Positions 3,880 to 33,799 of a stretch of DNA of 64,000 nucleotides are shown piece after piece. Source of the stretch: Vicinamibacterales bacterium (GTDB lineage: Bacteria; Acidobacteriota; Vicinamibacteria; Vicinamibacterales; JAMQPK01); assembly GCA_963746535.1 (NCBI GenBank), contig CAVVBP010000007.1, positions 752,319 through 816,318 on the forward strand. Direction: 5' to 3'. The notes beneath the pieces were generated by a model. It was not told where the DNA came from and did no database searches. It saw nothing but the letters and a program-made list of their open reading frames with translations. The stretch's first letter is position 1. Each line of letters starts with the position of its first letter. The position numbers and the translations under genes are program-made.

Positions 3880-4087
3880 CGGCTGGCAACGGATTTGGCT
3901 ACTAGCTTCGATTCTTTGGGCAGTTGTGATCCTGTTACTTGCAGGGATTCTTCAGCCGGACCGCGATCAGACCGTCCAGAGCGCCCTGTTCGTGGTGCGG
4001 CTGTGGATCGTCCCAGTCGTGGCGGTTTATGGGTTCGGCCTTGGCCTCGCTTGGGTCCGCCGCGGATTTCGAGTCGAGTCAAAGTAG
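3866..4087 (+). CDS. Small membrane protein (two predicted TM helices), unknown function
   Basis: GAGGAGG lies 6 nt upstream of ATG 3866. Hydrophobic stretches are IWLLASILWAVVILLLAGIL and LWIVPVVAVYGFGLGLAWV. Confidence 0.45.
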   Translation: MTTLNGWQRIWLLASILWAVVILLLAGILQPDRDQTVQSALFVVRLWIVPVVAVYGFGLGLAWVRRGFRVESK

Positions 4088-4151
4088 CCCACTACCGGAT
4101 TCAGCGTTCTCCTTGATCGCTGGGATGAGTCCATATAGGCAATGTTAGACG

Positions 4152-4379
4152 CTATTTCTTGTACTCCTCGGCGTCGACCTCGAAGGTCTGGCGCGGTCGC
4201 AACCCAAGCTCAAGTTTTTCAAGCATGCCCCCCAGCTTCTCACCATCGACCAATTCGATTGGCGGCGCCCCGTCTCGCACGGCCTCTTTCCGCGCCTCGG
4301 ACGTGAACGACCCGGTAGTGATGATGATGCCCTTGTCCGAATCGCGAGGCTGGGGTTGAGATACACGTTCTGAATTCAC
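4152..4379 (-). pseudogene. C-terminal fragment of an Mrr-like type IV restriction endonuclease
   Basis: KGIIITTGSFTSEARKEAVRDGAPPIELVDGEKLGGMLEKLELG matches the conserved Mrr_cat C-terminus (G.FITTS.FS..A...A......IELIDG..L..LL). The catalytic N-terminal part is missing; the fragment abuts the next gene. Confidence 0.55.
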
Positions 4380-4414
4380 CTGAGCAAAGCGGTATCAGGA
4401 GGGGGACAACATCA

Positions 4415-5404
4415 ATGGATTTGCATAAGCTGGTTCCGGTTCTGCTTCTCACCATGGGTGGGGTTCTGCTCCCAACGCGCATCGGTGCCCAAGCGCCTTC
4501 GGCGCCGGCATTTCCGAAATCCATTCCAACGTCGCCGGGACCGAAGACCAACCTGTTTCCTCACCTGATGACGAAAGCCGAGGTCCTCGCGGCGTTGGCA
4601 CAAGTGCAGGATTCACAGGACCTCGTGGTGAAGACTAATTTCGCCATTACACTCCGCGCCGCGAGCAACAAGACAAAGCTACCGTGGAAGTTGCACACAG
4701 AGGCCGATGAGCTGTGGTTTGTGTACAAGGGATCAGCCAAAGTCACCCTGGCTCCCTTCTCATTACAGGTGGGAGTGACGCCGCCGGGAAGCACCTATGA
4801 TGCAGCGGAAGGGGACATCGTGAACGTCCCGCGCGGGATGGCCTATCAGGTTATGCCGGCCGGCCGCTTCGAATATGTTGCGGTCCGGAAATTTCTGATC
4901 CCGCCCCCACCTACCGGACGAGGCGGTGGCGCGCCCGCGCAACAGGGACCACCGCCGACGGTGGTGACCAAAGCCGAGATCGACAAAATTTACGCCACAG
5001 CCACGGCGAGCGTGCCCATCTATCCTGGGATCACGGCGAATCTCTACGACGGCGGACCAAAGGGCGTGAAATGGGGTCCCCAGCCGGGCGGTCCCGTGGA
5101 AAACCATGAACGCGATGAGCATCTTTATATTGCGACGTACGGCCAGGCGAAGGCCTACATGGACGGCTTTATCACCGATGGGCATTGGGATAGACGTGGC
5201 GTGATGGGACTCGGGACCGCAGGTTCTACCGAGTACACGATGAACCCAGGCGATCTCCTGTTCGTCTTCCGAAATACGCTGCACTATATCGTCCCAATTC
5301 CAACGACAGGTAAGGCTGGCTACTTCCTTGTGAGTTTGAATGGGACGACCACGGAGCAGTCTCTGCCGAAAGCGATCATTCCGAATGGCGGAGGGGCCTA
5401 CTAG
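4415..5404 (+). CDS. Secreted two-domain cupin-like protein, paralogue 1 of 3
   Basis: Signal peptide. Cupin-like strands HTEADELWFVYKGSAKV...GDIVNVPRGMAYQV...FEYVAVRKF, and a second domain ENHERDEHLYIATYGQAKA...PGDLLFVFRNTLHY. Strongly similar to ORF 6370-7341. Confidence 0.8.
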   Translation: MDLHKLVPVLLLTMGGVLLPTRIGAQAPSAPAFPKSIPTSPGPKTNLFPHLMTKAEVLAALAQVQDSQDLVVKTNFAITLRAASNKTKLPWKLHTEADELWFVYKGSAKVTLAPFSLQVGVTPPGSTYDAAEGDIVNVPRGMAYQVMPAGRFEYVAVRKFLIPPPPTGRGGGAPAQQGPPPTVVTKAEIDKIYATATASVPIYPGITANLYDGGPKGVKWGPQPGGPVENHERDEHLYIATYGQAKAYMDGFITDGHWDRRGVMGLGTAGSTEYTMNPGDLLFVFRNTLHYIVPIPTTGKAGYFLVSLNGTTTEQSLPKAIIPNGGGAY

Positions 5405-5451
5405 GATGCTCACGTGCGCTTTGTATTTCTTGATTGGAAAGGACTAGGGCT

Positions 5452-6369
5452 ATGAACCGTTCACGGACTGTCGGGATAGTCGCGGTCGCGTCGTGCGTCC
5501 TCGTGCTGGGACTGGCCTCCAGCCGTGTGAACGCGCAAGCCAAGTTGACGAAAAACTTGTTTTCGCACGTGATGAAGAGCGCGGATGTCGACGCGCAGTT
5601 TGCGAAGATCAATGATTCCTGGGATGTGTATACGAAGACGAATCATGCGGTCACGTTCCGTGTGAACACGAAGAAACTGCCGCCGACGAATCATGAGGAG
5701 GCTGATGAGTATTGGTTTGTACGGAAGGGTTCGGCCAAGGTCAGCCTCAAGACCGGAACGGCAACTGCCGACGCCCCACACGATGTCGCAGCTGGCGATG
5801 TGGTGTATGTCCCGAGAAACGTCCCCTATGAGATCGATCCGGGTGCAACCCGTTTTGAGTATGTCGCTCTTCGAGTATTCACACCCCCGCAACTCGGGAG
5901 AGGCGCAGGAGCCGGCGCGGCCGGGGCAGCTCAGCCCGAACCTACGTCGTATTTCGCAGCGAAGGCTCAGATCGACCAAACGTTCGCCACAGCACCGCAG
6001 TCTACCCAACTGCGATTTCCGCGGGGTGGCAGTGTCAACATGATCATCTACAACGGCGCGACTGGCCCCTACGAATCGCATGAGGCAGTAGACCAGATCT
6101 ATTTCGTGCGTCATGGAACAGCCAAGGCGGCCATGGACGGCCGACTCGTGAATCCCACCGTAACCGGCCCAGGTCAGATACGCGGAACCGGATACATCGA
6201 CAGCAGCGAGTACACCATTGCTCCTGGTGACATCGTCTGGATTCCGCGAAATCAACTGCACTTTGTGGATCCCGGCACTGCGAGGATTGGATATTTTCTG
6301 GTCGGTTTCCCCAGCTCTCAGTCTGGCTTTCCGGAGCCACCTGATGGCGGGCGAGGAGGTGGACAGTAG
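5452..6369 (+). CDS. Secreted two-domain cupin-like protein, paralogue 2 of 3 (more divergent)
   Basis: ATG 5452 after GGAAAGGA (the ORF track starts at TTG 5434). Signal peptide VAVASCVLVLGLASSRVNAQA. Motifs NHEEADEYWFVRKGSAKV, GDVVYVPRNVPYEI, FEYVALRVF, HEAVDQIYFVRHGTAKA, PGDIVWIPRNQLHF. Confidence 0.8.
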   Translation: MNRSRTVGIVAVASCVLVLGLASSRVNAQAKLTKNLFSHVMKSADVDAQFAKINDSWDVYTKTNHAVTFRVNTKKLPPTNHEEADEYWFVRKGSAKVSLKTGTATADAPHDVAAGDVVYVPRNVPYEIDPGATRFEYVALRVFTPPQLGRGAGAGAAGAAQPEPTSYFAAKAQIDQTFATAPQSTQLRFPRGGSVNMIIYNGATGPYESHEAVDQIYFVRHGTAKAAMDGRLVNPTVTGPGQIRGTGYIDSSEYTIAPGDIVWIPRNQLHFVDPGTARIGYFLVGFPSSQSGFPEPPDGGRGGGQ

Positions 6370-7341
6370 GTGAAATTTCTCACTGCCTCGGGCGTCTTGT
6401 CAGGGCTGTGTCTGATATCTGCAGTGCACAGTGCGGCTCAGGTCTTGAGTCCTCCAAAATTTCCTGAGACCGTGACGGTATCTCCAGGGCCAAAGACGAA
6501 CTTGTTTCCGCACGTCATGAAGAAAGCCGAAGTGCTTGCAGCCCTGTCGCAAGTCAAGGAGTCGCAGGATCTATTTGTCAAAAGCAACGCCGGAGTCGCA
6601 TTGCGTGTTGCTTCTAACACAATGAGGTTGCCTTGGAAACAGCACCTCGAAGCAGATGAACTGTGGTTCGTATATCGCGGCGCGGCGAAAGTGAGCCTGG
6701 CTCACTTCTCGCTGCAGCTGGGGATCACCGCACCCGGCGAGACCTACAGCGTGGGAGAAGGCGATATCCTCAATGTTCCGCGGGGTATCGCGTATCAGAT
6801 CATGCCAGGTTCCGAACGCTTTGAATATGTTGCGGTTCGAAAGTTTGCCATTCAGCGGCCAAATTCGCAGCAGACCGCAGCGGCTGGTGGCCAGCCAGGT
6901 TCTCCCGTGACGACAAAGGCACAGATCGACGAATGGTACGAGGCGGGCATTGCAGGTACTTCCGGCATCCCGCCGGGAATCAACAGAATCATCTTCGACC
7001 GCGCCAAAGGTCCTGACTGGCGTAAAGGCGGGGCTCCTGGTCCCTGGGAGAACCACGAGACTAATGAGCACCTCACTATTGTGGTTTACGGAACCGCGAA
7101 GGCCACTCTAGACGGCTTTGTTACCGGCGCGGCGTGGGACAATCGCGGCGTAATGGGTAGGGGCGTGGTCGGCGGCAGCGATTACACGGTCGGACCCGGA
7201 GACCTGGTTTTTGCTTTTCGGAATACCGCGCACTTTTTTGATCCCATCTCTCAGAAATTCGGGTACCTCCTGGTGGATTTGCCGCAAAGTGAGCGGTTCT
7301 GGCCTACATCGATAGTGCCCAATGGAGCCGGTCCGTATTAG
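6370..7341 (+). CDS. Secreted two-domain cupin-like protein, paralogue 3 of 3
   Basis: GTG start immediately after the TAG of the previous gene. Near-colinear with paralogue 1 (SPGPKTNLFPHVMKKAEVLAAL..., EADELWFVYRGAAKV, GDILNVPRGIAYQI, FEYVAVRKF). Confidence 0.8.
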   Translation: MKFLTASGVLSGLCLISAVHSAAQVLSPPKFPETVTVSPGPKTNLFPHVMKKAEVLAALSQVKESQDLFVKSNAGVALRVASNTMRLPWKQHLEADELWFVYRGAAKVSLAHFSLQLGITAPGETYSVGEGDILNVPRGIAYQIMPGSERFEYVAVRKFAIQRPNSQQTAAAGGQPGSPVTTKAQIDEWYEAGIAGTSGIPPGINRIIFDRAKGPDWRKGGAPGPWENHETNEHLTIVVYGTAKATLDGFVTGAAWDNRGVMGRGVVGGSDYTVGPGDLVFAFRNTAHFFDPISQKFGYLLVDLPQSERFWPTSIVPNGAGPY

Positions 7342-7714
7342 GACCAGAAGATCATCTGGAAACGCGGCTCGCTTCGAGGCCTCGCCGGGCGCCCTCCAAG
7401 GTAGGTCGAGAATAAGGGCCTCAGCGTAGCGCTGTGCCGCACCCTCTGGATTGTGAGATCCACTTCCAGCGCGGCCAGGTTCAAGTAAGACCGCGCACTA
7501 AAGGGATTCGCACGCAGCGCCTTCAAATGCTTCGCGCGGCGGTTGCAATTGCCCAAGGCTTGCGAGCAATGCACCGAGAAGATTCTCGGCACGTGAATGG
7601 CCCCGGCTCGTTACGCACCACGAATGCCGCGTCCTGGGCAGCGAGATCTGGTCGACCCTGTAGAAAATAGAGTGAGGCGCCGTCGGCGTTCACGATAGGT
7701 CGTACCCGATTTCG

Positions 7715-8650
7715 CTACTTCGCGGGCGCCTCGCGGACGAACCGCGCCGCATAGAGCGCAAGGTTGGAACCCGTGACCGCGTACGCTTCCGGAAGGAGCG
7801 TCATCAGCGTGGCCCCGGTGAGGCCCTGCTCGTAGGACACGAAGCGGTAGCGCGTGAGCTTGTCGCTCGGCCGCTCGTGGAACACGACCCACTCGCCGCT
7901 GAACTCGACCGTTCCCGCCGCCGCCGCGCGGACCACGCTGCCGCTGGACAGACCCTGAAACCTGTAGCTGTACCGTCCGTCGGCGGCGATGGAATAGTAG
8001 TCCCCGGCAAACGTCACCGACGTGCCGGCGTAGGTGCCGGTACTGCCATTCACATACGAAACGACACTCGCGCCTCCGGTCTTCCAGTCGCCAACGAGAT
8101 CCGCGACCCCGATCGTCGTCTTGATCGGCGCCGCATGCAGCGGAGCGATACGGACGCTGCCAATCACCATCCGCACCGTTTCATACAGGGCGTCGAGCAC
8201 CGCACGGTTGGGACCGACAACCACCACCGGAACGAACGTCGCGACACTGGGCCGCAGGATATAGAGGGCGACCTCCCTGGTGCGATTGGCCACGGCGCCA
8301 CCTGACCACTTCGCAGCATAGCCGACCGATCCGCGAACGTCGTAGATCGGCGACGGCAGCGACAGGCGGGGATCATTCTCGACCAGCGTGCGCCACGCAA
8401 TCGCAAAGTCCCTGTCGGCAGCGCCACTGCTCGGCTGAGGCGCCGTCAGAAGGATGATCAGGTACGCGCCATTAGTGTTCTGCCAGACCATCTCGGCGCG
8501 ATCAGGCGCGCTGGTCTCGTACTTCCAGCCGTCCGGCACTGCGAAGGACAGCGGCTCGATCGTCTTCACGTCGGCGATGGCGAGGCGAGGAAGCAGCGTC
8601 GCGCAGACGGCCACAAATAGGGTGACTGCGAGCGAACGCGTATAGCGCAT
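7715..8650 (-). CDS. Secreted protein of unknown function
   Basis: ATG at 8650 (MRYTRSLAVTLFVAVCATLLPRLAIA signal peptide) after a GAGAGGA-like RBS. No recognisable motifs. Confidence 0.7.
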   Translation of the reverse strand: MRYTRSLAVTLFVAVCATLLPRLAIADVKTIEPLSFAVPDGWKYETSAPDRAEMVWQNTNGAYLIILLTAPQPSSGAADRDFAIAWRTLVENDPRLSLPSPIYDVRGSVGYAAKWSGGAVANRTREVALYILRPSVATFVPVVVVGPNRAVLDALYETVRMVIGSVRIAPLHAAPIKTTIGVADLVGDWKTGGASVVSYVNGSTGTYAGTSVTFAGDYYSIAADGRYSYRFQGLSSGSVVRAAAAGTVEFSGEWVVFHERPSDKLTRYRFVSYEQGLTGATLMTLLPEAYAVTGSNLALYAARFVREAPAK

Positions 8651-25633: not shown

Positions 25634-26020
25634 ATGTCTGCTCGAAAGGTCATTCACACGTTGTTTGGCGTGGCGCTCATCGGCGTGCTGGCAACCTCGT
25701 CGATCGGCGCAATGCCGGAGGCGGGGAAAATGACGTACTTCACGTTCAGCAAAGCCGTGCAGCTCCCCGGCGTCGCACTGCCAGCCGGCACCTATATCTT
25801 CGAGATCATCAACCCCGACACGAGCGCGAACGTCGTTCGCGTGGCCAGTCGCGATCGCTCGAAGGTCTATCTGACGCAAATCACCCATCGGGTTGAACGC
25901 CCGCGGTCGCGTGATATGGAGCCGCGGATCGTGCTCGGCGAGGCTCCGGCTGGCCAGCCGCCCCCGGTGGCGTCGTGGTTTCCCCATGGCGAGACGATCG
26001 GCCGCGCGTTCATCTACTAA
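25634..26020 (+). CDS. Small secreted protein, unknown function
   Basis: RBS AAGGAGGA. Signal peptide IHTLFGVALIGVLATSSIGA. Confidence 0.65.
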   Translation: MSARKVIHTLFGVALIGVLATSSIGAMPEAGKMTYFTFSKAVQLPGVALPAGTYIFEIINPDTSANVVRVASRDRSKVYLTQITHRVERPRSRDMEPRIVLGEAPAGQPPPVASWFPHGETIGRAFIY

Positions 26021-26109: not shown

Positions 26110-26643
26110 TCAACGCGAACAGTGATTCTCTGCCCGGCGATAAATCCTGTGGCAGCCGCTGCACGAGTCGGCCAGCTGTCCGTTCGCCTCGCTGATTTGC
26201 TCCTGGCTGCGCGCACGTGCCGCCGCGGCCGTCGCGCGGGCCGATACGCGCATCGCCTCCACCGCCGCTTTCCACTGTGATTCGTCGACCGGGACCGGCC
26301 TGCCGTTCGCACAGGCACGGCCGCGGAGGTTCAGCAGGTCCGCTGACTCCAGCAGTGCAAGGCTGCTGTTCTCGACCGCCTGCCACCCGCCGTAGAGACC
26401 CGAGAGCGGGTTGGTCGATGTCGACGGCTTGATATCGCGGGGAACAGCGGCGGGATCGTCACTCTCAGTGGCGAAGATCACGTTGGCGTTCGGGAACAGG
26501 ATCGCCTGCATCAACTGCTGAGCCGTCGAGGCGGGGCGGGGCGCCGGGGTCTGCGCCTGCGTTTCCACACGCGCCATGATGCCGGCCACGATCGCAACCG
26601 CAACGAGCAGGCAGCATCGCTTCACGGCTGCGCTTCGCGGCAT
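26110..26643 (-). CDS. Cytochrome c' (class II c-type cytochrome) with signal peptide
   Basis: Single CxxCH (CSGCHRIY) close to the C-terminus of a helical protein of about 150 aa, as in class II cytochromes. The start overlaps the upstream gene by 22 nt. Confidence 0.7.
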   Translation of the reverse strand: MPRSAAVKRCCLLVAVAIVAGIMARVETQAQTPAPRPASTAQQLMQAILFPNANVIFATESDDPAAVPRDIKPSTSTNPLSGLYGGWQAVENSSLALLESADLLNLRGRACANGRPVPVDESQWKAAVEAMRVSARATAAAARARSQEQISEANGQLADSCSGCHRIYRRAENHCSR

Positions 26644-27383
26644 TTTCCGCCCGGGCAGCGATTGTTCTCCTCGCACACGTACTCAAGCAGGCCGAGCTTG
26701 TCCCAATCGGGACGCAGCGTCAGCTCGAAGTCCTGCGAGAACGGGCGTTCGAAGATCTTCGAATCGTCAATCGTGATGCGGTACCGCAGCTTGTCGCCGG
26801 CACGCTGCAATCGCTCGGTCGTCTTGAGCGCGTCGGTGTGCCACCGGCTCCTGGTCGGATCGGTGTAGTGGTAGTCGTCGAGGATCCACGGCTTGAAGTT
26901 GACCGTCTCGATGACGAGCGCGTCGCCGTCCCACCGGCCCACTGAGTCGCCGTAGTAGGTCGGCTCGATGTCCTCCCGGTGCGGGCGCCCATCCGTCGGG
27001 ATAATCCGCGCGGCGCGCTGGAGCTCCGGGATGATCACGATGTAGTTCTGGTTCTGCACGATCTGGATCGGCAGGATGTAGAGCATGCCCGACGGGAAGC
27101 CCGACGGCAGGCAGGCGGCGCGCGGCTCGTCGAGACGAACATCGCCCGTGCGCATGTGGTACAGCAGGCTCTCGGCGCCGGGTTTCACCGGCGCCATCTT
27201 GTCGGCGTTGAAGATCAGGTTGCCGCGCGGCCCGGTCGCGTTGACCGTGGCCGGCGGTGTGTAGATGCCAGAGAAGTCAGGTTTGCCGTTTGCGGTGCGC
27301 GGAATGTCCTGCGCCCGGCTGGAATGGCCGGCGAGGAACACCAGCGCCGTCACAAGTGCCGAAGCGATGAATCGGCGGCTCAT
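26622..27383 (-). CDS. Secreted protein of unknown function (operon gene 5)
   Basis: Signal peptide ALVTALVFLAGHSSRAQ. ATGA overlap with the upstream gene stop at 27380-27383. Confidence 0.75.
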   Translation of the reverse strand: MSRRFIASALVTALVFLAGHSSRAQDIPRTANGKPDFSGIYTPPATVNATGPRGNLIFNADKMAPVKPGAESLLYHMRTGDVRLDEPRAACLPSGFPSGMLYILPIQIVQNQNYIVIIPELQRAARIIPTDGRPHREDIEPTYYGDSVGRWDGDALVIETVNFKPWILDDYHYTDPTRSRWHTDALKTTERLQRAGDKLRYRITIDDSKIFERPFSQDFELTLRPDWDKLGLLEYVCEENNRCPGGKCREAQP

Positions 27384-27775
27384 TTCCCACCCTCCGTTGG
27401 CGTCAGCACATTCGTGCCGTCGGCGAACGTGATGCGCCGGGCTGAAGCGTTGTTGGAACCATCACGGGCACGCACGCCTTCGACGTTGATCACCGAGCCG
27501 AGTTTGAGCGCCGTCTTGGTCACCCCGCGGCGCATCAGCGCTCCAGGGGGCGCCGTGGAAAAGCCCCAGGTCGTCAGCTTCCCGTCCTGTTCCTTCACCT
27601 CGACATAGAACCAGACATGCGGGTTCTGCCATTCGACCTTCGTCAGCATGCCGCTGACCTTGACCGGCTTGGTCGTGTCGTACTCGGCGGCTTCCGCATG
27701 GTGTGCGCGCAGCAGTGGGCCCGAGAGAAAGAGACCCAGGCCAATCACGAGCAAGAGCAGTCTGTGGCGTGGCAT
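27380..27775 (-). CDS. DUF6152-like periplasmic protein; predicted mature N-terminus His-His
   Basis: MPRHRLLLLVIGLGLFLSGPLLRA/HHAEAAEYD...VKVSGMLTKVEWQNPHVWFYV matches the remembered DUF6152 pattern (AHHSF..FD...V.L.G.V..F.W.NPH). A TTG at 27799 is an alternative start. Confidence 0.7.
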   Translation of the reverse strand: MPRHRLLLLVIGLGLFLSGPLLRAHHAEAAEYDTTKPVKVSGMLTKVEWQNPHVWFYVEVKEQDGKLTTWGFSTAPPGALMRRGVTKTALKLGSVINVEGVRARDGSNNASARRITFADGTNVLTPTEGGK

Positions 27776-27826
27776 GCAGTGCCTCAAAAGACGTTTCAAA
27801 GACTGTAAGAGAAGGGTTTCGGTTCG

Positions 27827-28324
27827 TCAACGTATCTCGGCAAAAAACGGCAGCATGCGGCCGAAGTAGAGCACGGCGAACCAGGCGACGAGCGAGACCC
27901 CGCCTACGACCTTGAAGGTCAGCGGCGTATCCTCGCCGGCCCCAATCGCCAGGACGCGGGCCCCCTGCGTGGTCTCGAAGAACATGGCGTTGAGACCCGC
28001 CACCAGCAGGAAGGCGACCTTTCCCCACCAGGCCCAGCTCACAACGTACTGGGAGGGCAGGGCCAGGAAGAACAGAATCCCGGTCGTCAGATTGAGACCG
28101 AAGCCGCACAGGGCCAGCGGCATGAACTGCCGCGCGACGGTCAACGGCACCCGCTTCATCAAACCGAGCAGGCGCAGGTCGAAGAATCCTGTCGCGCCGA
28201 TCAGCAGCGCCAGGCCGATGAAGTGCAACGTTTCGGAGAGCGGCCAGAGCCACGGCGCCTGCGACTGCAGAAACAGCGAGACCGACGTGTTCTGCAGGTC
28301 GCGTGCGAATGCTTCAACCGGCAT
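27827..28324 (-). CDS. Integral membrane protein (about 4 TM), paralogue of the next gene upstream
   Basis: Hydrophobic segments with TLHFIGLALLIGATGFFDLRLLG. Similar layout to the 28332-28802 product (TILVLHTAGFALVVGSALVVNARLLG). Confidence 0.7.
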   Translation of the reverse strand: MPVEAFARDLQNTSVSLFLQSQAPWLWPLSETLHFIGLALLIGATGFFDLRLLGLMKRVPLTVARQFMPLALCGFGLNLTTGILFFLALPSQYVVSWAWWGKVAFLLVAGLNAMFFETTQGARVLAIGAGEDTPLTFKVVGGVSLVAWFAVLYFGRMLPFFAEIR

Positions 28325-28331
28325 CGTCGCG

Positions 28332-28802
28332 CTACTTGATATAGGCCATCAGCCGGCCGGCGACGATGGCGCCGGTCCAGGTCACGAGTGACACCACGGC
28401 GAGCACGCGGCCGCGTGCCGGCACCACGCTCTGCTCGCCGGCGCCCTTGACCATCCGCACGATCGGCACAGTAACGCCCAGCGCCATGGCGATCAGCGAC
28501 AACTTGATCCAGAAGATCGCTTGAAACGCCTTCACCGTTGCCGCGATAGCGAACAGGATGAACCCGCTGATGGCATTGACCGTGAATCCCGCCCACATGA
28601 TTGGGAACAGCGGTCCAAATGCGGACAGCGGCGCGAGACGGCCCAGCCCCAGCAACCGCGCGTTCACGACCAGGGCTGAACCGACGACGAGCGCGAAGCC
28701 GGCGGTGTGCAGGACGAGAATGGTGGGGTATCCCCAGATCGACCCCGATTCCGCGATCGTCACGAAGATGGGAAGATGCTGCAGCCACTCGAGAAATGCC
28801 AC
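28332..28802 (-). CDS. Integral membrane protein (about 4 TM), paralogue of 27827-28324
   Basis: GTG start. 7-nt gap to the downstream paralogue. Motifs shared with it. Confidence 0.7.
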   Translation of the reverse strand: MAFLEWLQHLPIFVTIAESGSIWGYPTILVLHTAGFALVVGSALVVNARLLGLGRLAPLSAFGPLFPIMWAGFTVNAISGFILFAIAATVKAFQAIFWIKLSLIAMALGVTVPIVRMVKGAGEQSVVPARGRVLAVVSLVTWTGAIVAGRLMAYIK

Positions 28803-28839
28803 AGCCGCCGATGCTACCCTAACTTTCCTTCATCGCCTC

Positions 28840-29409
28840 CTATTTGGGAGCTTTGCCCTCGATAACAGTCTTGGTCGAGATGACGGTCCGGGGCTCTTCG
28901 ATGACTTTTTCTCCTGAGACCTTCATGCCCTTCTTCAGATCGGTGACGGCGGCCGGCTTGCCTTCCACAACGAACCGGAACGTCGGAGGAACGACGTACT
29001 CCCGGTTCTCGCCGCTTGGGAGCGTGAGAATCACGTAGTTGCCCGACGTGTACCACACGGTGCCGTTGGTGACGGTCGTCGTCCGCACCACGATCGGCTG
29101 CGTCGTCGTAATCGCGGTCGCCCTCAGAACCGTTCCCGGCCGGAGGTCGCTGATGAGTCTGGCTTGACCATCGATGATGAACTGCCGTCCGGGTGGGATG
29201 TCGAAGTAGCGGTACTGGCCGCTCGGTTGCAATTTGACCAGGAGCCAGTTGCCCTCAGTCAGCACCACTTCTCCAGTGATCTGCTCCTGGGTCACCTTGG
29301 CGTTGCCCGCAGCCTCTGTGACCTTGCTTGTCGTGGTCTGCGCTCGAAGCCCCACAGCCGAGGCCAGCAACACCGCCACGCCCGTGATAATGAGATGCCG
29401 TTTCGTCAT
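28840..29409 (-). CDS. Secreted Thr/Val-rich beta-type protein (operon gene 1)
   Basis: ATG 29409 after AGGAGAAGG. Signal peptide HLIITGVAVLLASAVGLRAQ. Alternating beta-strand-like sequence. Confidence 0.7.
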   Translation of the reverse strand: MTKRHLIITGVAVLLASAVGLRAQTTTSKVTEAAGNAKVTQEQITGEVVLTEGNWLLVKLQPSGQYRYFDIPPGRQFIIDGQARLISDLRPGTVLRATAITTTQPIVVRTTTVTNGTVWYTSGNYVILTLPSGENREYVVPPTFRFVVEGKPAAVTDLKKGMKVSGEKVIEEPRTVISTKTVIEGKAPK

Positions 29410-29461
29410 CTTTCCTTCTCCTTTTGGTACGTGCTCGTACCGCCGTGACAGTCCCGAAATG

Positions 29462-29567
29462 GAGCATCTTCCGTGCCGGGAAGGGGCGAGGATCGTCGTC
29501 ATTTCTGGGAGGACCTGCCGCAGCGCACGGAGTACTACGATAGAAACCACGATATATCGTGCGTGTC
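29462..29567 (-). repeat. Copy B of the 106-nt regulatory module; contains the perfect palindrome CACGATATATCGTG (29548-29561)
   Basis: See copy A. The palindrome centre lies about 85 nt upstream of the -24 element, a typical enhancer distance for bEBP sites. Confidence 0.8.
29463..29479 (-). promoter_or_regulatory. Candidate sigma54 (-24/-12) promoter of the six-gene operon
   Basis: The minus strand reads CCGGCACGGAAGATGCT: GGCACG-N4-(A)TGC(T) with exact GG-N10-GC spacing. Lies about 55 nt upstream of ATG 29409. Confidence 0.6.
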
Positions 29568-29594
29568 TCGCCCTTGGCGGTTCGTTGACTGACG

Positions 29595-32510
29595 CTAATC
29601 CACCGCTCGATATGCCACGAGCCGCCACTCGGAGCTCACCCGCCGCCAGACGAACACGATCGTCCCGCCCGGCCGTCCTTCATGAACGACCTGCAGCAGG
29701 GCGCCGTAGTACGTGCCGTACTCCGGCGTCGTCGACGCCACGAACGTCTTCGGCGGCGTCGTTCCACACTCGTACAGTGCGCCTAGCTCCGTGGGAGCCT
29801 CGACGATCGTGAAGTCCCGATCGAACGCGTGCTTCACGACGCGCACCGCGGACGACCAGGGCACGACGGGATTCATCGCCTGGGTCAGGCTGGTTGGCCG
29901 TCCCCACTGGTTCGCGGTCTGTTCCAACAGCTTCACGCTCGCGTGCCGTAGACGTTCCGGCGACGTCTTCGGATTCATGTCGAGCGAGTCGGCGACGCAC
30001 GGCAGAACATCCGGTGCGAGGAACGCCGCGGCTTCCTGGTAGTTGCGCCGGATCAGCCAGTCCGCCAGGAACTCCTGCACGGCGTCGGCGATCTCCGGAA
30101 CCGACTCTGTGGCCCGGTTGGGTGGCACGGTGGTCGGCGGCCGTGTCGGCGCACCACCAAAGGCACCGTCCTCACCCCGCTCGCCGAACCTGACGGCGCC
30201 GAACGTTTCCGACCACCAGTTGGCGAAGCCGTTCCACCGCCGCGTGTGGCGTTGCGCGTTGTCGCCGGCCCGGACGTCCGAGTTCGAGGACGTGAGATGC
30301 CCGTTGAACAACGATTGCGGCGCCTTGCTCGCGCGATAGTCGACGTCGATGTCGGCGCCGAGCCCATCTTCAGCCACGGAGAACTGGACGCTCGGGACGC
30401 CCGCGCCAAGACGGAATGAGTGCGGGTAGCCGGCATGGTACGCCGTGTTCTCCTGACTCAGGACGAACTCGCGCGATTGCTCCAGAACGTCGCGCGCGTT
30501 CGGCCGCAGGGTCACGTAGACGCGGAACTGCTGATCGCCGCTCCGGCCGGCCTGCTCGCCGGCAATGCGATTGAGACCGGCCACGAGGTCGATCGCCCGT
30601 CCGAGTGGTTGTCCGCGATCGTCGGTCAACACCGAGTGGAGGAGCGCGTGCGTGATCGCATCGAACGTCGTCTGTTCGGAAGGGCTGAGCGCCCGGAAGC
30701 GTTCATCGGGCGTGAGGTTCTCGCCGAGCCTGGTGTTCATCGCGCGAGCGTAGGTGTCGAAGATCCGCTGCCGCTCGGGTTCGAGCTCGACGTACCGGTT
30801 CCTGACCGGTCGTACGACGACGCGCGGATCGACCAGCGAACGGCCGGGCCACTCGCGATCGATGCCGACAACGCGGAGGCCAGCGGTCTCCCGGCGCAGA
30901 TACACGCTCACGGCCATGCCCGGAGGTGCGCCGTCCGCCGTGATGCGCGCCAGGACGTAGCTGCCGGCGGGAGCGTTGACGGCCGCGGCGGGTATCGGCT
31001 GGCCCTGATCGGTCGATCCCAGCACCGCCGCTGGTTTCGCCGTTCTGTTGTCGTAGGTCAGCCAGTCCACGCGGTAGCGGCGTGCCTCCGTGTACTGGTG
31101 TTGCAGCGCGAGATCGACAAACGTCAGCTCCGCACCGCGGACGGCGATGTCGTCGATTGGAAGCACCGTCGCGAAGTACGCGCGTCCGATGCGATTGCGC
31201 CGATCGATCAGGCAGTCCGCGATCCAGCGTTCGGCGTTCGGGTCGGCATACTGCGCGACCTGCACGATGGCGCGGATGTCCTCGTCTGTGAATGCGCCCA
31301 CCTGCCGGGCCGCCCAGAAATCGTCGTCTGGCAGCCGGTTGGCGAACGGGGCCACATCGTAGACGGGAGCCCACTTGTCCGGCTCGAACGTTTTCGAATC
31401 GAAGGCGCCGACCGCCGGAAGATTCGGATATGTGGCACGCATCCAGGCCGGCGTGTACAAGCCGAGTCCGGAGACATTACGGAGCGACGCCTCCGCTCCG
31501 TAAATCGGATCCCGGCCTTCCCATACGCCTTTCGGGCCGTTGATGCCGCTACCCAGCGTGGCCATGAAATCCAGGAGGTAGTGACGGATATGCGGAGCCT
31601 GTCCCTGCGGCTGGACCACGACGTCGAACGTGTGGAGCGCGTCCATGCGCGCGTGGTTCAGCCAGGCCGAGAAGACCCGTAAACCGCGCAGGTCGCGCCG
31701 GTGCTCGTGCGGCACGATGTCGTTCGGGTCGTCGCTTCGCGTTCCGAACAGCTGATACGGACCGACCAGCGATACGCCGTCCGTGGGCACTCTCAGGGCA
31801 ATAGCACGGTATTGGCCGTCGCGCCGGCGCTCGACCGTGGCCAGCAGACGGTCGATGTGTTCGGGGCGGAGCGGGCGGACGCCGGCGTTGGAGGTCACCG
31901 CCGTGGCGTTCGTCTCGACGACGAGGCGATCGCGCAAGAACAGCGTCAAGTAGGTTTCGGGAACGTAGTAGCCGAGCGCGTGAAAGAAGCGCGAGGAGAT
32001 CATCGCGGCGCCGGTCGCCAGCTCGGACGACCCGCGCGGATCGAAGTTCAGAAAGTAGACCCGGCTGTTCTCGTCGCGAAACACGATCGTCGGCCGCAGC
32101 CCCGTGTTCTTCACCACGAGGACGTGCCACGGGCCCGTCGTCGATGGCGGCTGGTCGTCTCCGCTGCCGCGGCGCAACTCCTCCAGGCTCATGCGGGTGC
32201 GCCCGTGACGGTTCACGTACCACGGGCCGTCGAGCACCTCGCCCAGCGTGTTGACGCCCTGCGCCCCGATGACGCGCGTGCCAGGATGTCGTTCACCCGG
32301 ACGGCCGAACGTTGCCGACACCGCCTCGAGAAGCACGCTCAGATTGCGCGGACCCGGATCGGGCGCGGGCAGTGGCGCCGGTTCGCCGAGCAACGGATCG
32401 TCGGGATAGAACTTCTGCGCGGCCGCCGGTCGCGGCCCGATACCCGTCGCTACGGCGAGAAGCGCCAGCACGAGCGTGAGGTGGTAAGCCGGCAGTCGGC
32501 GGGGCGTCAC
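29595..32510 (-). CDS. Large (971 aa) secreted protein of unknown function
   Basis: The probable GTG start at 32510 shares a G with the TAG of the upstream Omp85 gene (TAGTG). Signal peptide LPAYHLTLVLALLAVATGIGPRPAAAQ. No family recognised by eye. Confidence 0.75.
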   Translation of the reverse strand: MTPRRLPAYHLTLVLALLAVATGIGPRPAAAQKFYPDDPLLGEPAPLPAPDPGPRNLSVLLEAVSATFGRPGERHPGTRVIGAQGVNTLGEVLDGPWYVNRHGRTRMSLEELRRGSGDDQPPSTTGPWHVLVVKNTGLRPTIVFRDENSRVYFLNFDPRGSSELATGAAMISSRFFHALGYYVPETYLTLFLRDRLVVETNATAVTSNAGVRPLRPEHIDRLLATVERRRDGQYRAIALRVPTDGVSLVGPYQLFGTRSDDPNDIVPHEHRRDLRGLRVFSAWLNHARMDALHTFDVVVQPQGQAPHIRHYLLDFMATLGSGINGPKGVWEGRDPIYGAEASLRNVSGLGLYTPAWMRATYPNLPAVGAFDSKTFEPDKWAPVYDVAPFANRLPDDDFWAARQVGAFTDEDIRAIVQVAQYADPNAERWIADCLIDRRNRIGRAYFATVLPIDDIAVRGAELTFVDLALQHQYTEARRYRVDWLTYDNRTAKPAAVLGSTDQGQPIPAAAVNAPAGSYVLARITADGAPPGMAVSVYLRRETAGLRVVGIDREWPGRSLVDPRVVVRPVRNRYVELEPERQRIFDTYARAMNTRLGENLTPDERFRALSPSEQTTFDAITHALLHSVLTDDRGQPLGRAIDLVAGLNRIAGEQAGRSGDQQFRVYVTLRPNARDVLEQSREFVLSQENTAYHAGYPHSFRLGAGVPSVQFSVAEDGLGADIDVDYRASKAPQSLFNGHLTSSNSDVRAGDNAQRHTRRWNGFANWWSETFGAVRFGERGEDGAFGGAPTRPPTTVPPNRATESVPEIADAVQEFLADWLIRRNYQEAAAFLAPDVLPCVADSLDMNPKTSPERLRHASVKLLEQTANQWGRPTSLTQAMNPVVPWSSAVRVVKHAFDRDFTIVEAPTELGALYECGTTPPKTFVASTTPEYGTYYGALLQVVHEGRPGGTIVFVWRRVSSEWRLVAYRAVD

Positions 32511-33799
32511 TAGAACGTCCTCCGCGAGATATCGCTGAGCGACCATATCCACCTGAAGCCCTCGCGGCTCGCGGCGACGTCCATGCGCAGCACGACCGCG
32601 CCACGTACGCGGGCGCGCAGGCCGAGGCCGCCGCTGTAGTTCAGCTGAGAGAAGTCGACATGCCCCTTCTGCGGCACGGTCTTGCCGGCGTCCGCGAACG
32701 CCGCCATCTCGAGGCCGCTGAACACATACCAGCGGTGCTCGACCGCCGCCATGAACGCGTTGTTGTCGGAGAACCGGTACTGGTTGAAGCCGCGCAGCTC
32801 GAAGTTGCCCCCCAGCTGCGGCAACAGATAGAACGGGACCACGCGATCGTCGCCGCCGGCGTACGCGAACCGGGCCCTGACGAACAGCGCCACCACACGC
32901 TGCTTGTTGAAGTACGGGAAGAAGTGCTGCCCCTCGAGAGCCAGCTTGCGATGCGTGTACGTGCCCTCATCCAGATCCAGGTAGCGTTTGAACTCGATCC
33001 CGTAGAAGCCGCCGCTCCTGGGTCCGCGCACCAGGTCGCGGGAGTCGAATCCCGCAAACGCGCCCCACGAACCGAACCTGGTGTCGTCAAAGAGGCCGGG
33101 CGCCGTGGTCTGATCGAATATGGCCTCAATGGATGGAACGTCTCCGCCGCTGACCGGGCCGGTATGTGCCGCGCCGTACCCGAAATCGATGCCGGCGTTC
33201 AGCGAGCGCGCGAACCGGTAGCCGGCCCGGAGGTCGATCGACGCCGTGTTCAGCAGATAGCGGGTGCGGTCTTCCTCTCTGGAATCGGCGCCAAGGCCGT
33301 AGTACTCCATCCGCGGCGATCGTTCGTATTTCGTGTAGACGTCGAGGAAGGTGTCGGCCGCGCGGCGCACTCCGTTCACCTGCAGTTCGCCGTCGGCGAG
33401 GACCGCGCCGCTCAGCGTGCCGCGAACGGTGGCGCGGGCGGTGAGCGCGTCGTTGAACAGATCCGAACGTCGATAGCCGATGCCGAAGGTCTGGCCCTGC
33501 GCGGGGCGTGTTCCTGAAAAGAGCAACTGCCAGCCGTTATTGCCCTGGCCGCTCTGGATGCCTTCGATAAGGCCCCGATCCACAAGACGATTGGCCCGGA
33601 CGACGAGCGGACTCTCCCGCTCGGGCCACAACGTCGCGTGTTTCTGACGCCGCGCCAGCTCGATCTGCTCGACTCGCGTCGCGGGTTCCGGCGCCGGCGC
33701 GGAAGCCTGCGCCTCCGTTGGCGCTTGCCCCCGTACGAGTGGAGCAGACAGGCCCCAGACCAATACCGTGCAGAGCCAGCGGGAACGCGGATCTCTCAC
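32510..33799 (-). CDS. Omp85/BamA-superfamily outer-membrane barrel, apparently without POTRA repeats
   Basis: Signal peptide. C-terminal barrel signature ...GGNFELRGFNQYRFSDNNAFMAAVEHRW...NYSGGLGLRARV...WIWSLSDISRRTF (terminal Phe). Only about 100 aa precede the barrel. Confidence 0.75.
   Translation of the reverse strand: MRDPRSRWLCTVLVWGLSAPLVRGQAPTEAQASAPAPEPATRVEQIELARRQKHATLWPERESPLVVRANRLVDRGLIEGIQSGQGNNGWQLLFSGTRPAQGQTFGIGYRRSDLFNDALTARATVRGTLSGAVLADGELQVNGVRRAADTFLDVYTKYERSPRMEYYGLGADSREEDRTRYLLNTASIDLRAGYRFARSLNAGIDFGYGAAHTGPVSGGDVPSIEAIFDQTTAPGLFDDTRFGSWGAFAGFDSRDLVRGPRSGGFYGIEFKRYLDLDEGTYTHRKLALEGQHFFPYFNKQRVVALFVRARFAYAGGDDRVVPFYLLPQLGGNFELRGFNQYRFSDNNAFMAAVEHRWYVFSGLEMAAFADAGKTVPQKGHVDFSQLNYSGGLGLRARVRGAVVLRMDVAASREGFRWIWSLSDISRRTF

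Follow-up and report, generated by a model that had tools for sequence, protein, structure and literature searches.

A cluster of six closely spaced genes (g1 to g6, Table 1) occupies the minus strand of a 64,000-nucleotide stretch of DNA from a Vicinamibacterales bacterium (contig CAVVBP010000007.1, positions 752,319 to 816,318; hereafter the window, in whose coordinates positions at this locus are given). The cluster had been put forward as an operon of uncharacterised envelope proteins ending in a cytochrome c', and as a candidate periplasmic metal or redox system with possible links to copper, nitric oxide (NO) and carbon monoxide (CO). Here we report that, judged from protein families and gene neighbourhoods, g2 to g5 belong to a conserved envelope module of three uncharacterised families. 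This core, made up of DUF6152 (g4), DUF6644 (g2 and g3) and the calycin-like family of g5, recurs as a group of neighbouring genes whose order varies, across Acidobacteriota and Alpha-, Beta- and Gammaproteobacteria.

Organization of the six-gene cluster

Table 1. The six genes of the cluster and the region preceding them, in window coordinates
Feature	Coordinates	Strand	Description
Putative promoter region	29410..29594	-	185 nt 5' of g1; sole long same-strand gap
g1	28840..29409	-	189 aa; secreted, Thr/Val-rich, two tandem beta repeats
g2	28332..28802	-	156 aa; GTG start; four transmembrane segments; divergent DUF6644 paralogue, first of tandem pair
g3	27827..28324	-	165 aa; four transmembrane segments; DUF6644
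g4	27380..27775	-	131 aa from ATG; secreted DUF6152 protein; OB fold (model)
g5	26622..27383	-	253 aa; secreted, calycin-like; no Pfam model
g6	26110..26643	-	177 aa; secreted class II cytochrome c; C-terminal CSGCH

The six minus-strand open reading frames (ORFs) were confirmed with the coordinates and spacing first proposed for them, and a second gene call agrees: a public contig with an identical g6, called separately, encodes the same six products (189, 156, 165, 131, 253 and 177 aa) at identical spacing, with g4 starting at the ATG at 27775. An alternative TTG start at 27799 would give a g4 product of 139 aa. The genes are separated by gaps of 37 nt (g1-g2), 7 nt (g2-g3) and 51 nt (g3-g4; 27 nt if the TTG start is used), g4 and g5 overlap in an ATGA at 27380-27383, and the overlap of g5 and g6 spans 22 nt (26622-26643). 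A strong ribosome-binding site (AAGGAGAAGG) precedes g1, the region 29410-29594 upstream of it is likely to be the promoter region of the cluster, and the gene next downstream of the cluster is convergent. The window has a G+C content of about 63-65%, and its nearest relatives are Vicinamibacterales (Acidobacteriota) metagenome-assembled genomes (MAGs), one of which (L005) encodes a g5 that is 98% identical.

Promoter, terminator and Rfam scans of the cluster returned chance-level matches only, with no internal terminator, consensus sigma-70 promoter or Rfam element; that the six genes form a single operon is therefore something we infer, from their spacing and conserved order. Because it recurs in other genomes, the arrangement lies far beyond chance. 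One sigma-70-like match (TTGACG-17-TACAGT) lies in the g3-g4 gap, at 27802-27830 (-); 0.4 such matches are expected by chance, and it is therefore not evidence of an internal promoter. No second copy of any of these families was found in the remaining 60 kb of the window.

Conservation and neighbourhoods of the module

Homologous loci (labelled L001 and so on) were compared from three anchors: g5 against one genome per species, g3 against metagenome contigs, and mature g4 in a tblastn search of plasmids and chromids from bacteria in culture. Genes at these loci were called with a simple ORF and GC3 heuristic that over-extends some ORFs, and the architecture strings given below (M, DUF6644; O, DUF6152; C, g5 family; Y, cytochrome) are approximate. 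The hidden Markov models used were built from the same loci that they searched.

The g5 anchor yielded 65 loci from four phyla, all in MAGs, of Acidobacteriota, Gammaproteobacteria, Rhodospirillaceae and Acidimicrobiia. A DUF6152 ORF is present at 57 of them and, by manual count, a g4 homologue lies directly 5' of the anchor g5 at about 55-58, often in several tandem pairs. The full g2-g6 set was found at a handful of these loci only, L003/6, L004/24, L005, L008 and L036, in Vicinamibacterales and other Acidobacteria, and at L013 the order is g6-g4-g5. When neighbouring ORFs were clustered all-against-all, no family beyond those of g4 and g5 occurred at more than 14 of 64 loci, and the operon partners were heterogeneous.

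Among the 80 metagenome loci found from g3, a tandem DUF6644 pair is present at 74. Flanks of 1.5 kb or more on either side are available at 28 loci, of which 25 carry genes of the DUF6152 family, the g5 family or both. The order C-O-M-M was seen at at least 15 loci and M-M-O-C at at least 9, together with O-M-M-C and with M-M accompanied by C-C a few kb away. Proximity that is kept while order is shuffled is, as a pattern of gene neighbourhoods, a classic signature of functional coupling.

Twelve plasmid or chromid records were matched by the g4 search, and all seven that were inspected, from cultured Caballeronia, Cupriavidus, Azospirillum, Novosphingobium, Sphingobium and Croceibacterium, have DUF6152 beside a DUF6644 and/or g5-type gene. 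Caballeronia grimmiae, Cupriavidus campinensis and Azospirillum brasilense Sp7 carry a minimal DUF6152-DUF6644 pair; in Caballeronia the two genes lie 3 nt apart and bear these names in the NCBI annotation. In Novosphingobium and Sphingobium, g5-g4(-g5-g4) genes face a DUF6644 pair and a TonB-dependent receptor gene, Croceibacterium has the order g4-g4-g5-TonB receptor, and TonB-dependent receptors also flank modules at several acidobacterial loci. Taking plasmids, chromids, MAGs and metagenomes together, the conserved unit is therefore a DUF6152 hub with the g5 family and/or DUF6644, and not a set of six genes. Co-occurrence across phyla, on which the original prediction had been made to depend, was thus seen for the families of g2 to g5, which neighbour one another, variously ordered, both in Acidobacteriota and among cultured Alpha- and Betaproteobacteria, but not for g1, which is confined to the nearest relatives, or for g6, which is attached to the module only in Vicinamibacterales-like lineages.

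Two further operon types recur, namely cytochrome c followed by a pyrroloquinoline quinone (PQQ) dehydrogenase (PF01011) and two g5-like genes, and GSDH-DUF6152-g5 (L099 7539-10470, L093, L090 7833-10223, L001 4798-8762). Other cytochrome c genes stand beside modules at L041, L067 and L163.

The three core families

The g4 product matches PF19649 (DUF6152) at 87.7 bits (cut-off 27, E=5.7e-25), and the same family is recorded for all 120 listed g4 homologues. Its predicted signal peptide cleavage site is LRA↓HH (the arrow marks the cut), with W-x-N-P-H (here WQNPH) 24 residues after it. These features, which had been noticed in g4 as a mature His-His and a WQNPH motif, are family-wide: 112 of 122 DUF6152 ORFs have (A/V/L)-x-A↓H-H-(S/A/G) and then N-P-H 23-24 residues on, and position -1 of the cleavage site is Ala in 92%. 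Across 41 non-redundant sequences, the positions conserved to at least 90% are A24, H25, H26, D33, G42, W49, N51, P52, H53, W70, G84, G93 and G120. The mature protein is predicted to start with His as residue 1, and H53 is the invariant candidate for the second His of a brace-like site.

Histidine-brace sites and related metal sites with an N-terminal His are characterised by a signal-peptidase site fixed so that His becomes residue 1 (PMC10952591, PMC12537917). Experiments have shown that a His conserved at the N terminus once the signal peptide is removed marks the secreted Ni/Cu-binding families DUF4198, DUF6702 and the anglerases, which often adjoin TonB receptors or are fused to permeases (PMC12537917). 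The idea of a copper or histidine-brace site in g4 has thus been strengthened by family-wide conservation and by published precedents (PMC12537917), though it keeps the standing of a proposal. DUF6152 and DUF6644 are absent from that paper, on signal strapping, and from its supplements; both are already catalogued under Pfam and NCBI names, and a literature search found no paper on either.

The AlphaFold2 model of g4 (mean confidence, pLDDT, 81) is a five-strand oligonucleotide/oligosaccharide-binding (OB) barrel behind a signal helix, and its best Foldseek matches in the PDB are generic OB folds (LysRS, PriB, SSB) at E of about 1e-3. Membership of g4 in a known brace family was rejected on this ground, the folds of those families being Ig/FnIII-like or cupredoxin-like sandwiches and that of the model an OB barrel; g4 would therefore be an analogue of them and not a member. 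Searches of the PDB by sequence gave no match for g4 or g5, and NCBIfam gave no significant match for any of the six products.

The g3 product matches PF20349 (DUF6644) at 27.1 bits, with a cut-off of 27.0; g2 scores 11.8 bits against the same model, under the cut-off, and has no Pfam or NCBIfam match above threshold. That the two are paralogous proteins with four transmembrane (TM) segments each, as proposed, is borne out by BLASTP (E=1e-13, 28% identity over 144 aa), by the common motif H(F/T)xGxAxxxGxxxxxxxRLLG and by hydropathy, and g2 keeps the H/R/K/W/GR positions of the family. In 22 non-redundant DUF6644 sequences the invariant residues are H34, R51, G54, G82, K102, W148, G155 and R156; from hydropathy and the positive-inside rule, H34, K102 and R156 would lie near the periplasmic face. 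No match to Pfam CopD (PF05425) was found at E<=5 among 12 DUF6644 sequences. The DUF6644 members of L165 (3836-4817) weakly match DUF2214 (20.5 bits, cut-off 34.1), and these two uncharacterised membrane families may be remotely related.

The ORF of g5 was confirmed as that of a 253-aa secreted protein without a family match: g5 and 10 diverse relatives have no relevant Pfam match and match no lipocalin model, and g5 also lacks an NCBIfam match. Its family is large, with 1390 close homologues and with 10,539 representatives of 50%-identity clusters at E<=1e-3, of which 4,341 reach E<=1e-10. An N-terminal, calycin-like motif, DxSG(I/x)(Y/W), has its Gly conserved to at least 90%, and Trp is the consensus residue at the 70% level two positions after this Gly. 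The invariants shared across the superfamily are the motif Gly, Cys91 in CxPxGxP, Trp151 and Cys237, all of a structural kind only. In the model (pLDDT 75) the C-terminal half is an antiparallel beta barrel, for which Foldseek gave the fatty-acid- and retinoic-acid-binding proteins FABP/CRABP as best hits, a weak match (E 1e-3 to 1e-2; TM-score 0.28-0.36 by query, about 0.5 by target). Orthologues of the window's g5 are unusually well conserved, sharing 66-93% identity even between phyla. Those of Vicinamibacterales and of contigs assigned by binning to Gammaproteobacteria (L019, L020, L031, L032, L062, L064) are 78-85% identical, which suggests either that the g4-g5 pair was recently transferred horizontally or that the contigs were wrongly binned; the TPA MAG titles of several such contigs (Bifidobacterium, Enterobacteriaceae, Bordetella) look mislabelled.

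The lineage-restricted genes g1 and g6

Mature g1 contains 14.5% Thr and 12% Val, and its halves are tandem beta repeats of about 65 aa (29% identical, E=1e-11), in agreement with its description as a secreted, Thr/Val-rich protein of beta type; it has no Pfam or NCBIfam match above threshold. In more than 150 loci, g1 homologues were found only in L005, L076 and the public contig with an identical g6, and among the 65 g5-anchored loci in L005 alone. Given its confinement to the nearest relatives, g1 seems to have been inserted recently at the operon's 5' end, outside the conserved module. The earlier view that none of the first five products has a recognisable function still holds, the literature search on DUF6152 and DUF6644 having turned up none.

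The assignment of g6 to the class II cytochromes c, which are of the four-helix-bundle type, is sound: PF01322 (Cytochrom_C_2) is matched at 29.0 bits, above its cut-off of 26.5, and a single CSGCH forms residues 161-165 of 177. Its last 50 residues, with the C-terminal haem-binding helix and CSGCH, are the only part that aligns to solved cytochromes c', the best PDB match being 4cx9 (E=1.2e-3). The subfamily is small, with 107 homologues found in 5.8 billion clusters; g6-type genes at the loci were recognised as phmmer matches that pass a CxxCH filter. The subfamily has as invariants QLM (Met45, in helix 1), YGGW-AVENS, Cys110, Cys175 and CxxCH. Cytochromes c' have a five-coordinate, high-spin haem whose hydrophobic distal pocket binds NO and CO. 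In b562- and c556-type cytochromes a helix-1 Met is the sixth ligand of the haem; the invariant Met45 may likewise be the sixth ligand and g6 a low-spin electron carrier. The suggestion that g6 binds NO or CO found no support, and no NO-related gene (nor, nir, hmp, nsrR) was seen in any locus.

Close members of the g6 subfamily (about 57% identity or more) sit with g4-g5, and those at 40-50% identity are found in other contexts. The arrangements with a g6-type gene are MMOCY (the window, L003-L008, L077, L079), YOC (L013), OMMY (L091) and MM-Y (L165). In L091, a divergent module, O-M-M is followed by another protein with a C-terminal CxxCH, which shares the motif ELM-x-x-I-x-x-P-N-A. At L165/L166 (2306-5642) a DUF6644 pair is followed by a g6-like cytochrome, with neither g4 nor g5, and is divergent from a gene for a protein with three heavy-metal-binding domains (HMBD). 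Distant g6-types in Gammaproteobacteria adjoin HupE/UreJ-2 membrane proteins (L070/71, with L070 at 6001-7944, and L075 at 3908-6573), whose predicted mature N-terminus is a His (TSA↓HN and AFA↓HP); L070 also encodes a 212-aa protein without a family. An N-terminal His on HupE/UreJ-2 is the 'anglerase' architecture, for which Cu(II)/Ni(II) binding has been shown experimentally (PMC12537917). Still other distant members adjoin TonB-type receptors (L072, L074) or stand in unrelated contexts. The cytochrome is thus an optional partner whose link to the module is restricted to Vicinamibacterales and related lineages, and its recurring associate is the small His-bearing membrane protein.

A possible periplasmic metal relay

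We tentatively propose that the module captures a His-ligated metal in the periplasm and relays it onwards, with the cytochrome supplying a redox step, a proposal that we regard as possible though short of an even chance. In this scheme the N-terminal amine of mature DUF6152, together with His25, His26 and His53 (and Asp33), would form a histidine-brace-like site for the periplasmic capture of a late transition metal, of which copper is the likeliest. As carrier or co-receptor, the calycin-like g5 would assist, and in some genomes it would act after a TonB-dependent receptor. From there the metal would pass to a DUF6644 heterodimer, with 8 TM segments in total and its invariant His near the periplasmic face, which would move it into or across the inner membrane as acceptor or permease. 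The cytochrome c would give or take one electron, for instance in the step from Cu(II) to Cu(I), and so drive release or transfer. In outline this logic would resemble that of CopC/CopD, YcnI/YcnJ and anglerase-HupE/UreJ-2, carried out by non-homologous parts.

Several observations weigh against this proposal. The g4 model has a pLDDT below 50 at residues 24-28, where the N-terminal His lies, and is unreliable there because the signal peptide was included in the model; the structural matches of g4 and g5 alike are weak (E about 1e-3, TM-scores 0.3-0.6). Homology to known metal-handling proteins was sought with hhalign and rejected for DUF6152 and CusF (probability 3%, with an approximate CusF sequence), for DUF6644 and CopD (0.9% against E. 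coli YebZ) and for DUF6644 and HupE/UreJ-2 (PF13795; 0.4% against the HupE_UreJ_2 protein of L070). DUF6644 has one invariant His and otherwise conserved Arg, Lys and Arg, a set that would be unusual for a cation pathway and would fit haem-propionate binding as well or better. Most g4-g5 pairs have no DUF6644 or cytochrome gene nearby, and the metagenome loci are not phylogenetically independent. Metal-related neighbours are rare, a scan of the loci for HMBD motifs being positive at L165/L166 only, and other neighbours that recur, namely dehydrogenases of the PQQ and GSDH types, aldo-keto reductases, Gfo/Idh/MocA enzymes and xylose-isomerase-like proteins, point to periplasmic sugar or alcohol oxidation.

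In a different account, the module is a conduit for electrons from periplasm to membrane. The two DUF6644 proteins would each supply one axial ligand of a bis-His haem b, located close to the periplasmic side with its propionates on the invariant Lys/Arg, much as in the SdhC/SdhD anchor; the cytochrome c would shuttle electrons to periplasmic oxidoreductases, and DUF6152 and g5 would be redox or substrate-binding subunits of a periplasmic enzyme. Exactly one invariant His per DUF6644 protein, accompanied by R51, K102 and R156, and the tandem pairing at 74 of 80 loci are what such a conduit would call for. So are the L165 pair with its g6-type cytochrome in a locus without g4 or g5, the invariant Met45 of g6, suggestive of a low-spin electron carrier, the recurrence of PQQ dehydrogenase-cytochrome c-g5-g5 and GSDH-g4-g5 operons, and the further cytochrome c genes beside modules at L041, L067 and L163. 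However, Beta- and Alphaproteobacteria have a single DUF6644 with DUF6152 and neither cytochrome nor dehydrogenase nearby, no quinone-site or haem-b signature is recognisable, most g4-g5 pairs lack a membrane partner, and the strictly processed N-terminal His-His of DUF6152 would be left without an explanation. Taken as a whole, we consider this account rather unlikely.

The handling of haem also enters an account of the module as a trafficking route for a haem, another tetrapyrrole or a hydrophobic ligand, imported by the TonB receptor, carried by the g5 barrel, ligated by the His-His of DUF6152 and delivered to the DUF6644 pair; here DUF6152 is likened to CcmE, a haem chaperone that also has an OB fold. 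Conserved transmembrane His and basic residues are typical of haem-handling membrane proteins (CcmC, CcsA), a pattern that DUF6644 shares; the C-terminal half of g5 resembles the lipid-binding barrels of FABP/CRABP and has a calycin-type G-x-W/Y first strand, and genes for TonB-dependent receptors stand next to the modules of Croceibacterium, Sphingobium and Novosphingobium and to several acidobacterial ones. Against this, the Foldseek matches of g5 are weak (E 1e-3, TM-score by query about 0.3), its superfamily invariants are structural only, and CcmE is missing from the top 50 structural matches listed for g4. The receptors are not universal neighbours and, since they are very abundant in these phyla, their adjacency may be due to chance. 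We judge ligand trafficking to be distinctly unlikely. Much less probable still is the system originally envisaged, one six-gene operon responding to copper and to NO or CO through a five-coordinate, gas-binding cytochrome c'. It would agree with the tight spacing of the six genes, the PF01322 match of g6 and the N-terminal His-His of g4, but g1 is absent beyond the closest relatives and g6 from most modules, the invariant helix-1 Met and extra Cys pair of g6 are not canonical features of cytochromes c', and the loci are devoid of nor, nir, hmp and nsrR. At the far end stands the view that unrelated small envelope genes without a common function have come together by chance, which the heterogeneity of the neighbours outside the four families, and the probable unrelatedness of g1, could be taken to favour. 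Pairwise linkage of the DUF6152, DUF6644, g5 and g6 families in many orders and in at least four phyla, and conserved translational coupling (the g4/g5 ATGA overlap and the g5/g6 overlap), make chance juxtaposition extremely improbable.

Returning to the metal relay, we think it comparably possible, again with somewhat less than even confidence, that DUF6152, DUF6644 and the calycin-like family make up an unrecognised and widespread envelope machine with an optional class II cytochrome c. To the same tentative degree, such a machine would comprise an OB capture protein with a His-His-brace-like site, a dedicated carrier and a two-subunit membrane acceptor, and would be homologous to no characterised metal-uptake, haem-handling or respiratory system.

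Comparison with known systems

The likeness of the module to CopC/CopD, YcnI/YcnJ, anglerase-HupE/UreJ-2 and CusF is, on present comparisons, one of analogy and not of homology. CopC and YcnI are Ig/cupredoxin-like sandwiches. Like CopC/CopD (E. coli YobA/YebZ) and YcnI/YcnJ (B. subtilis), the module has a secreted N-terminal-His protein encoded beside a polytopic membrane protein with a conserved His, with 8 TM segments in total; unlike them, and with no homology to them, it has an OB fold in DUF6152, two 4-TM paralogues, an extra calycin-like partner and, here, a cytochrome c. In both of these systems the mature N-terminal His forms a (mono-)histidine brace, and the soluble partner has been proposed to hand its metal over to the membrane partner (PMC8689200, PMC8424229, PMC12362106). 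With the signal-strapping families (DUF4198, DUF6702, anglerase-HupE/UreJ-2) the module shares a His fixed as residue 1, TonB-receptor neighbourhoods and, through the g6-types, proximity to HupE/UreJ-2; those families have a beta-sandwich and a single His, whereas the DUF6152 module has an OB fold, His-His and a separate, non-homologous membrane partner. For the signal-strapping families, some of which are fused to small permeases, a role in binding or transport and not in catalysis has been proposed (PMC12537917).

The Cu(I)/Ag(I) chaperones CusF/SilF are, like the proposed role of DUF6152, small periplasmic OB-fold carriers that hand metal to a membrane machine, but CusF ligands are His/Met/Met/Trp, whereas DUF6152 lacks a conserved Met and has the N-terminal His-His and NPH. 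Compared with class II cytochromes c (c', c556), with which it shares the single C-terminal CxxCH and an alignable C-terminal stretch of 50 residues, g6 is longer (about 145 versus about 125 mature residues), carries an insertion with YGGW-AVENS, and has an extra conserved Cys pair and the invariant helix-1 Met. The predicted C-terminal barrel and N-terminal G-x-W/Y motif of g5 recall calycins (FABP/CRABP and bacterial lipocalin-like proteins), but g5 is twice their size, with an N-terminal elaboration of about 100 residues, a conserved disulfide pair and no Pfam lipocalin match, and the structural match is borderline.

This analysis ties three families without experimental data into one unit and attaches predictions to individual residues, namely the processed His-His and NPH of DUF6152 and the single transmembrane His of DUF6644 with its Arg/Lys/Arg. 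If the metal relay is true, it would add to CopC/CopD, YcnI/YcnJ and anglerase-HupE/UreJ-2 a fourth way of capturing metal in the periplasm, with parts not homologous to theirs, and would partly explain trace-metal acquisition in the abundant, largely uncultured soil Acidobacteriota. If the module instead conducts electrons, the two DUF6644 proteins would constitute a new type of small redox anchor in the membrane. If it is a new machine, soil Acidobacteriota and Proteobacteria would have a new pathway of acquisition or redox chemistry, defined by the substrate of the machine (metal ion, metal chelate or cofactor). Several bacteria that can be cultured and are amenable to genetics (Azospirillum brasilense Sp7, Cupriavidus, Caballeronia, Novosphingobium) carry minimal DUF6152-DUF6644 units.

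Genes flanking the cluster

Directly upstream of the cluster, a 985-aa ORF at 29595-32552 (-) has no Pfam match at E<=0.01 and overlaps by 43 nt the gene for an Omp85-family outer-membrane protein (32510-33799, -); the two may form another uncharacterised envelope pair. On the other side, past g6, a convergent ORF at 25634-26020 (+) encodes a secreted protein of 128 aa that weakly matches DUF2911 (17.8 bits, cut-off 27) and is also present on the public contig with an identical g6.

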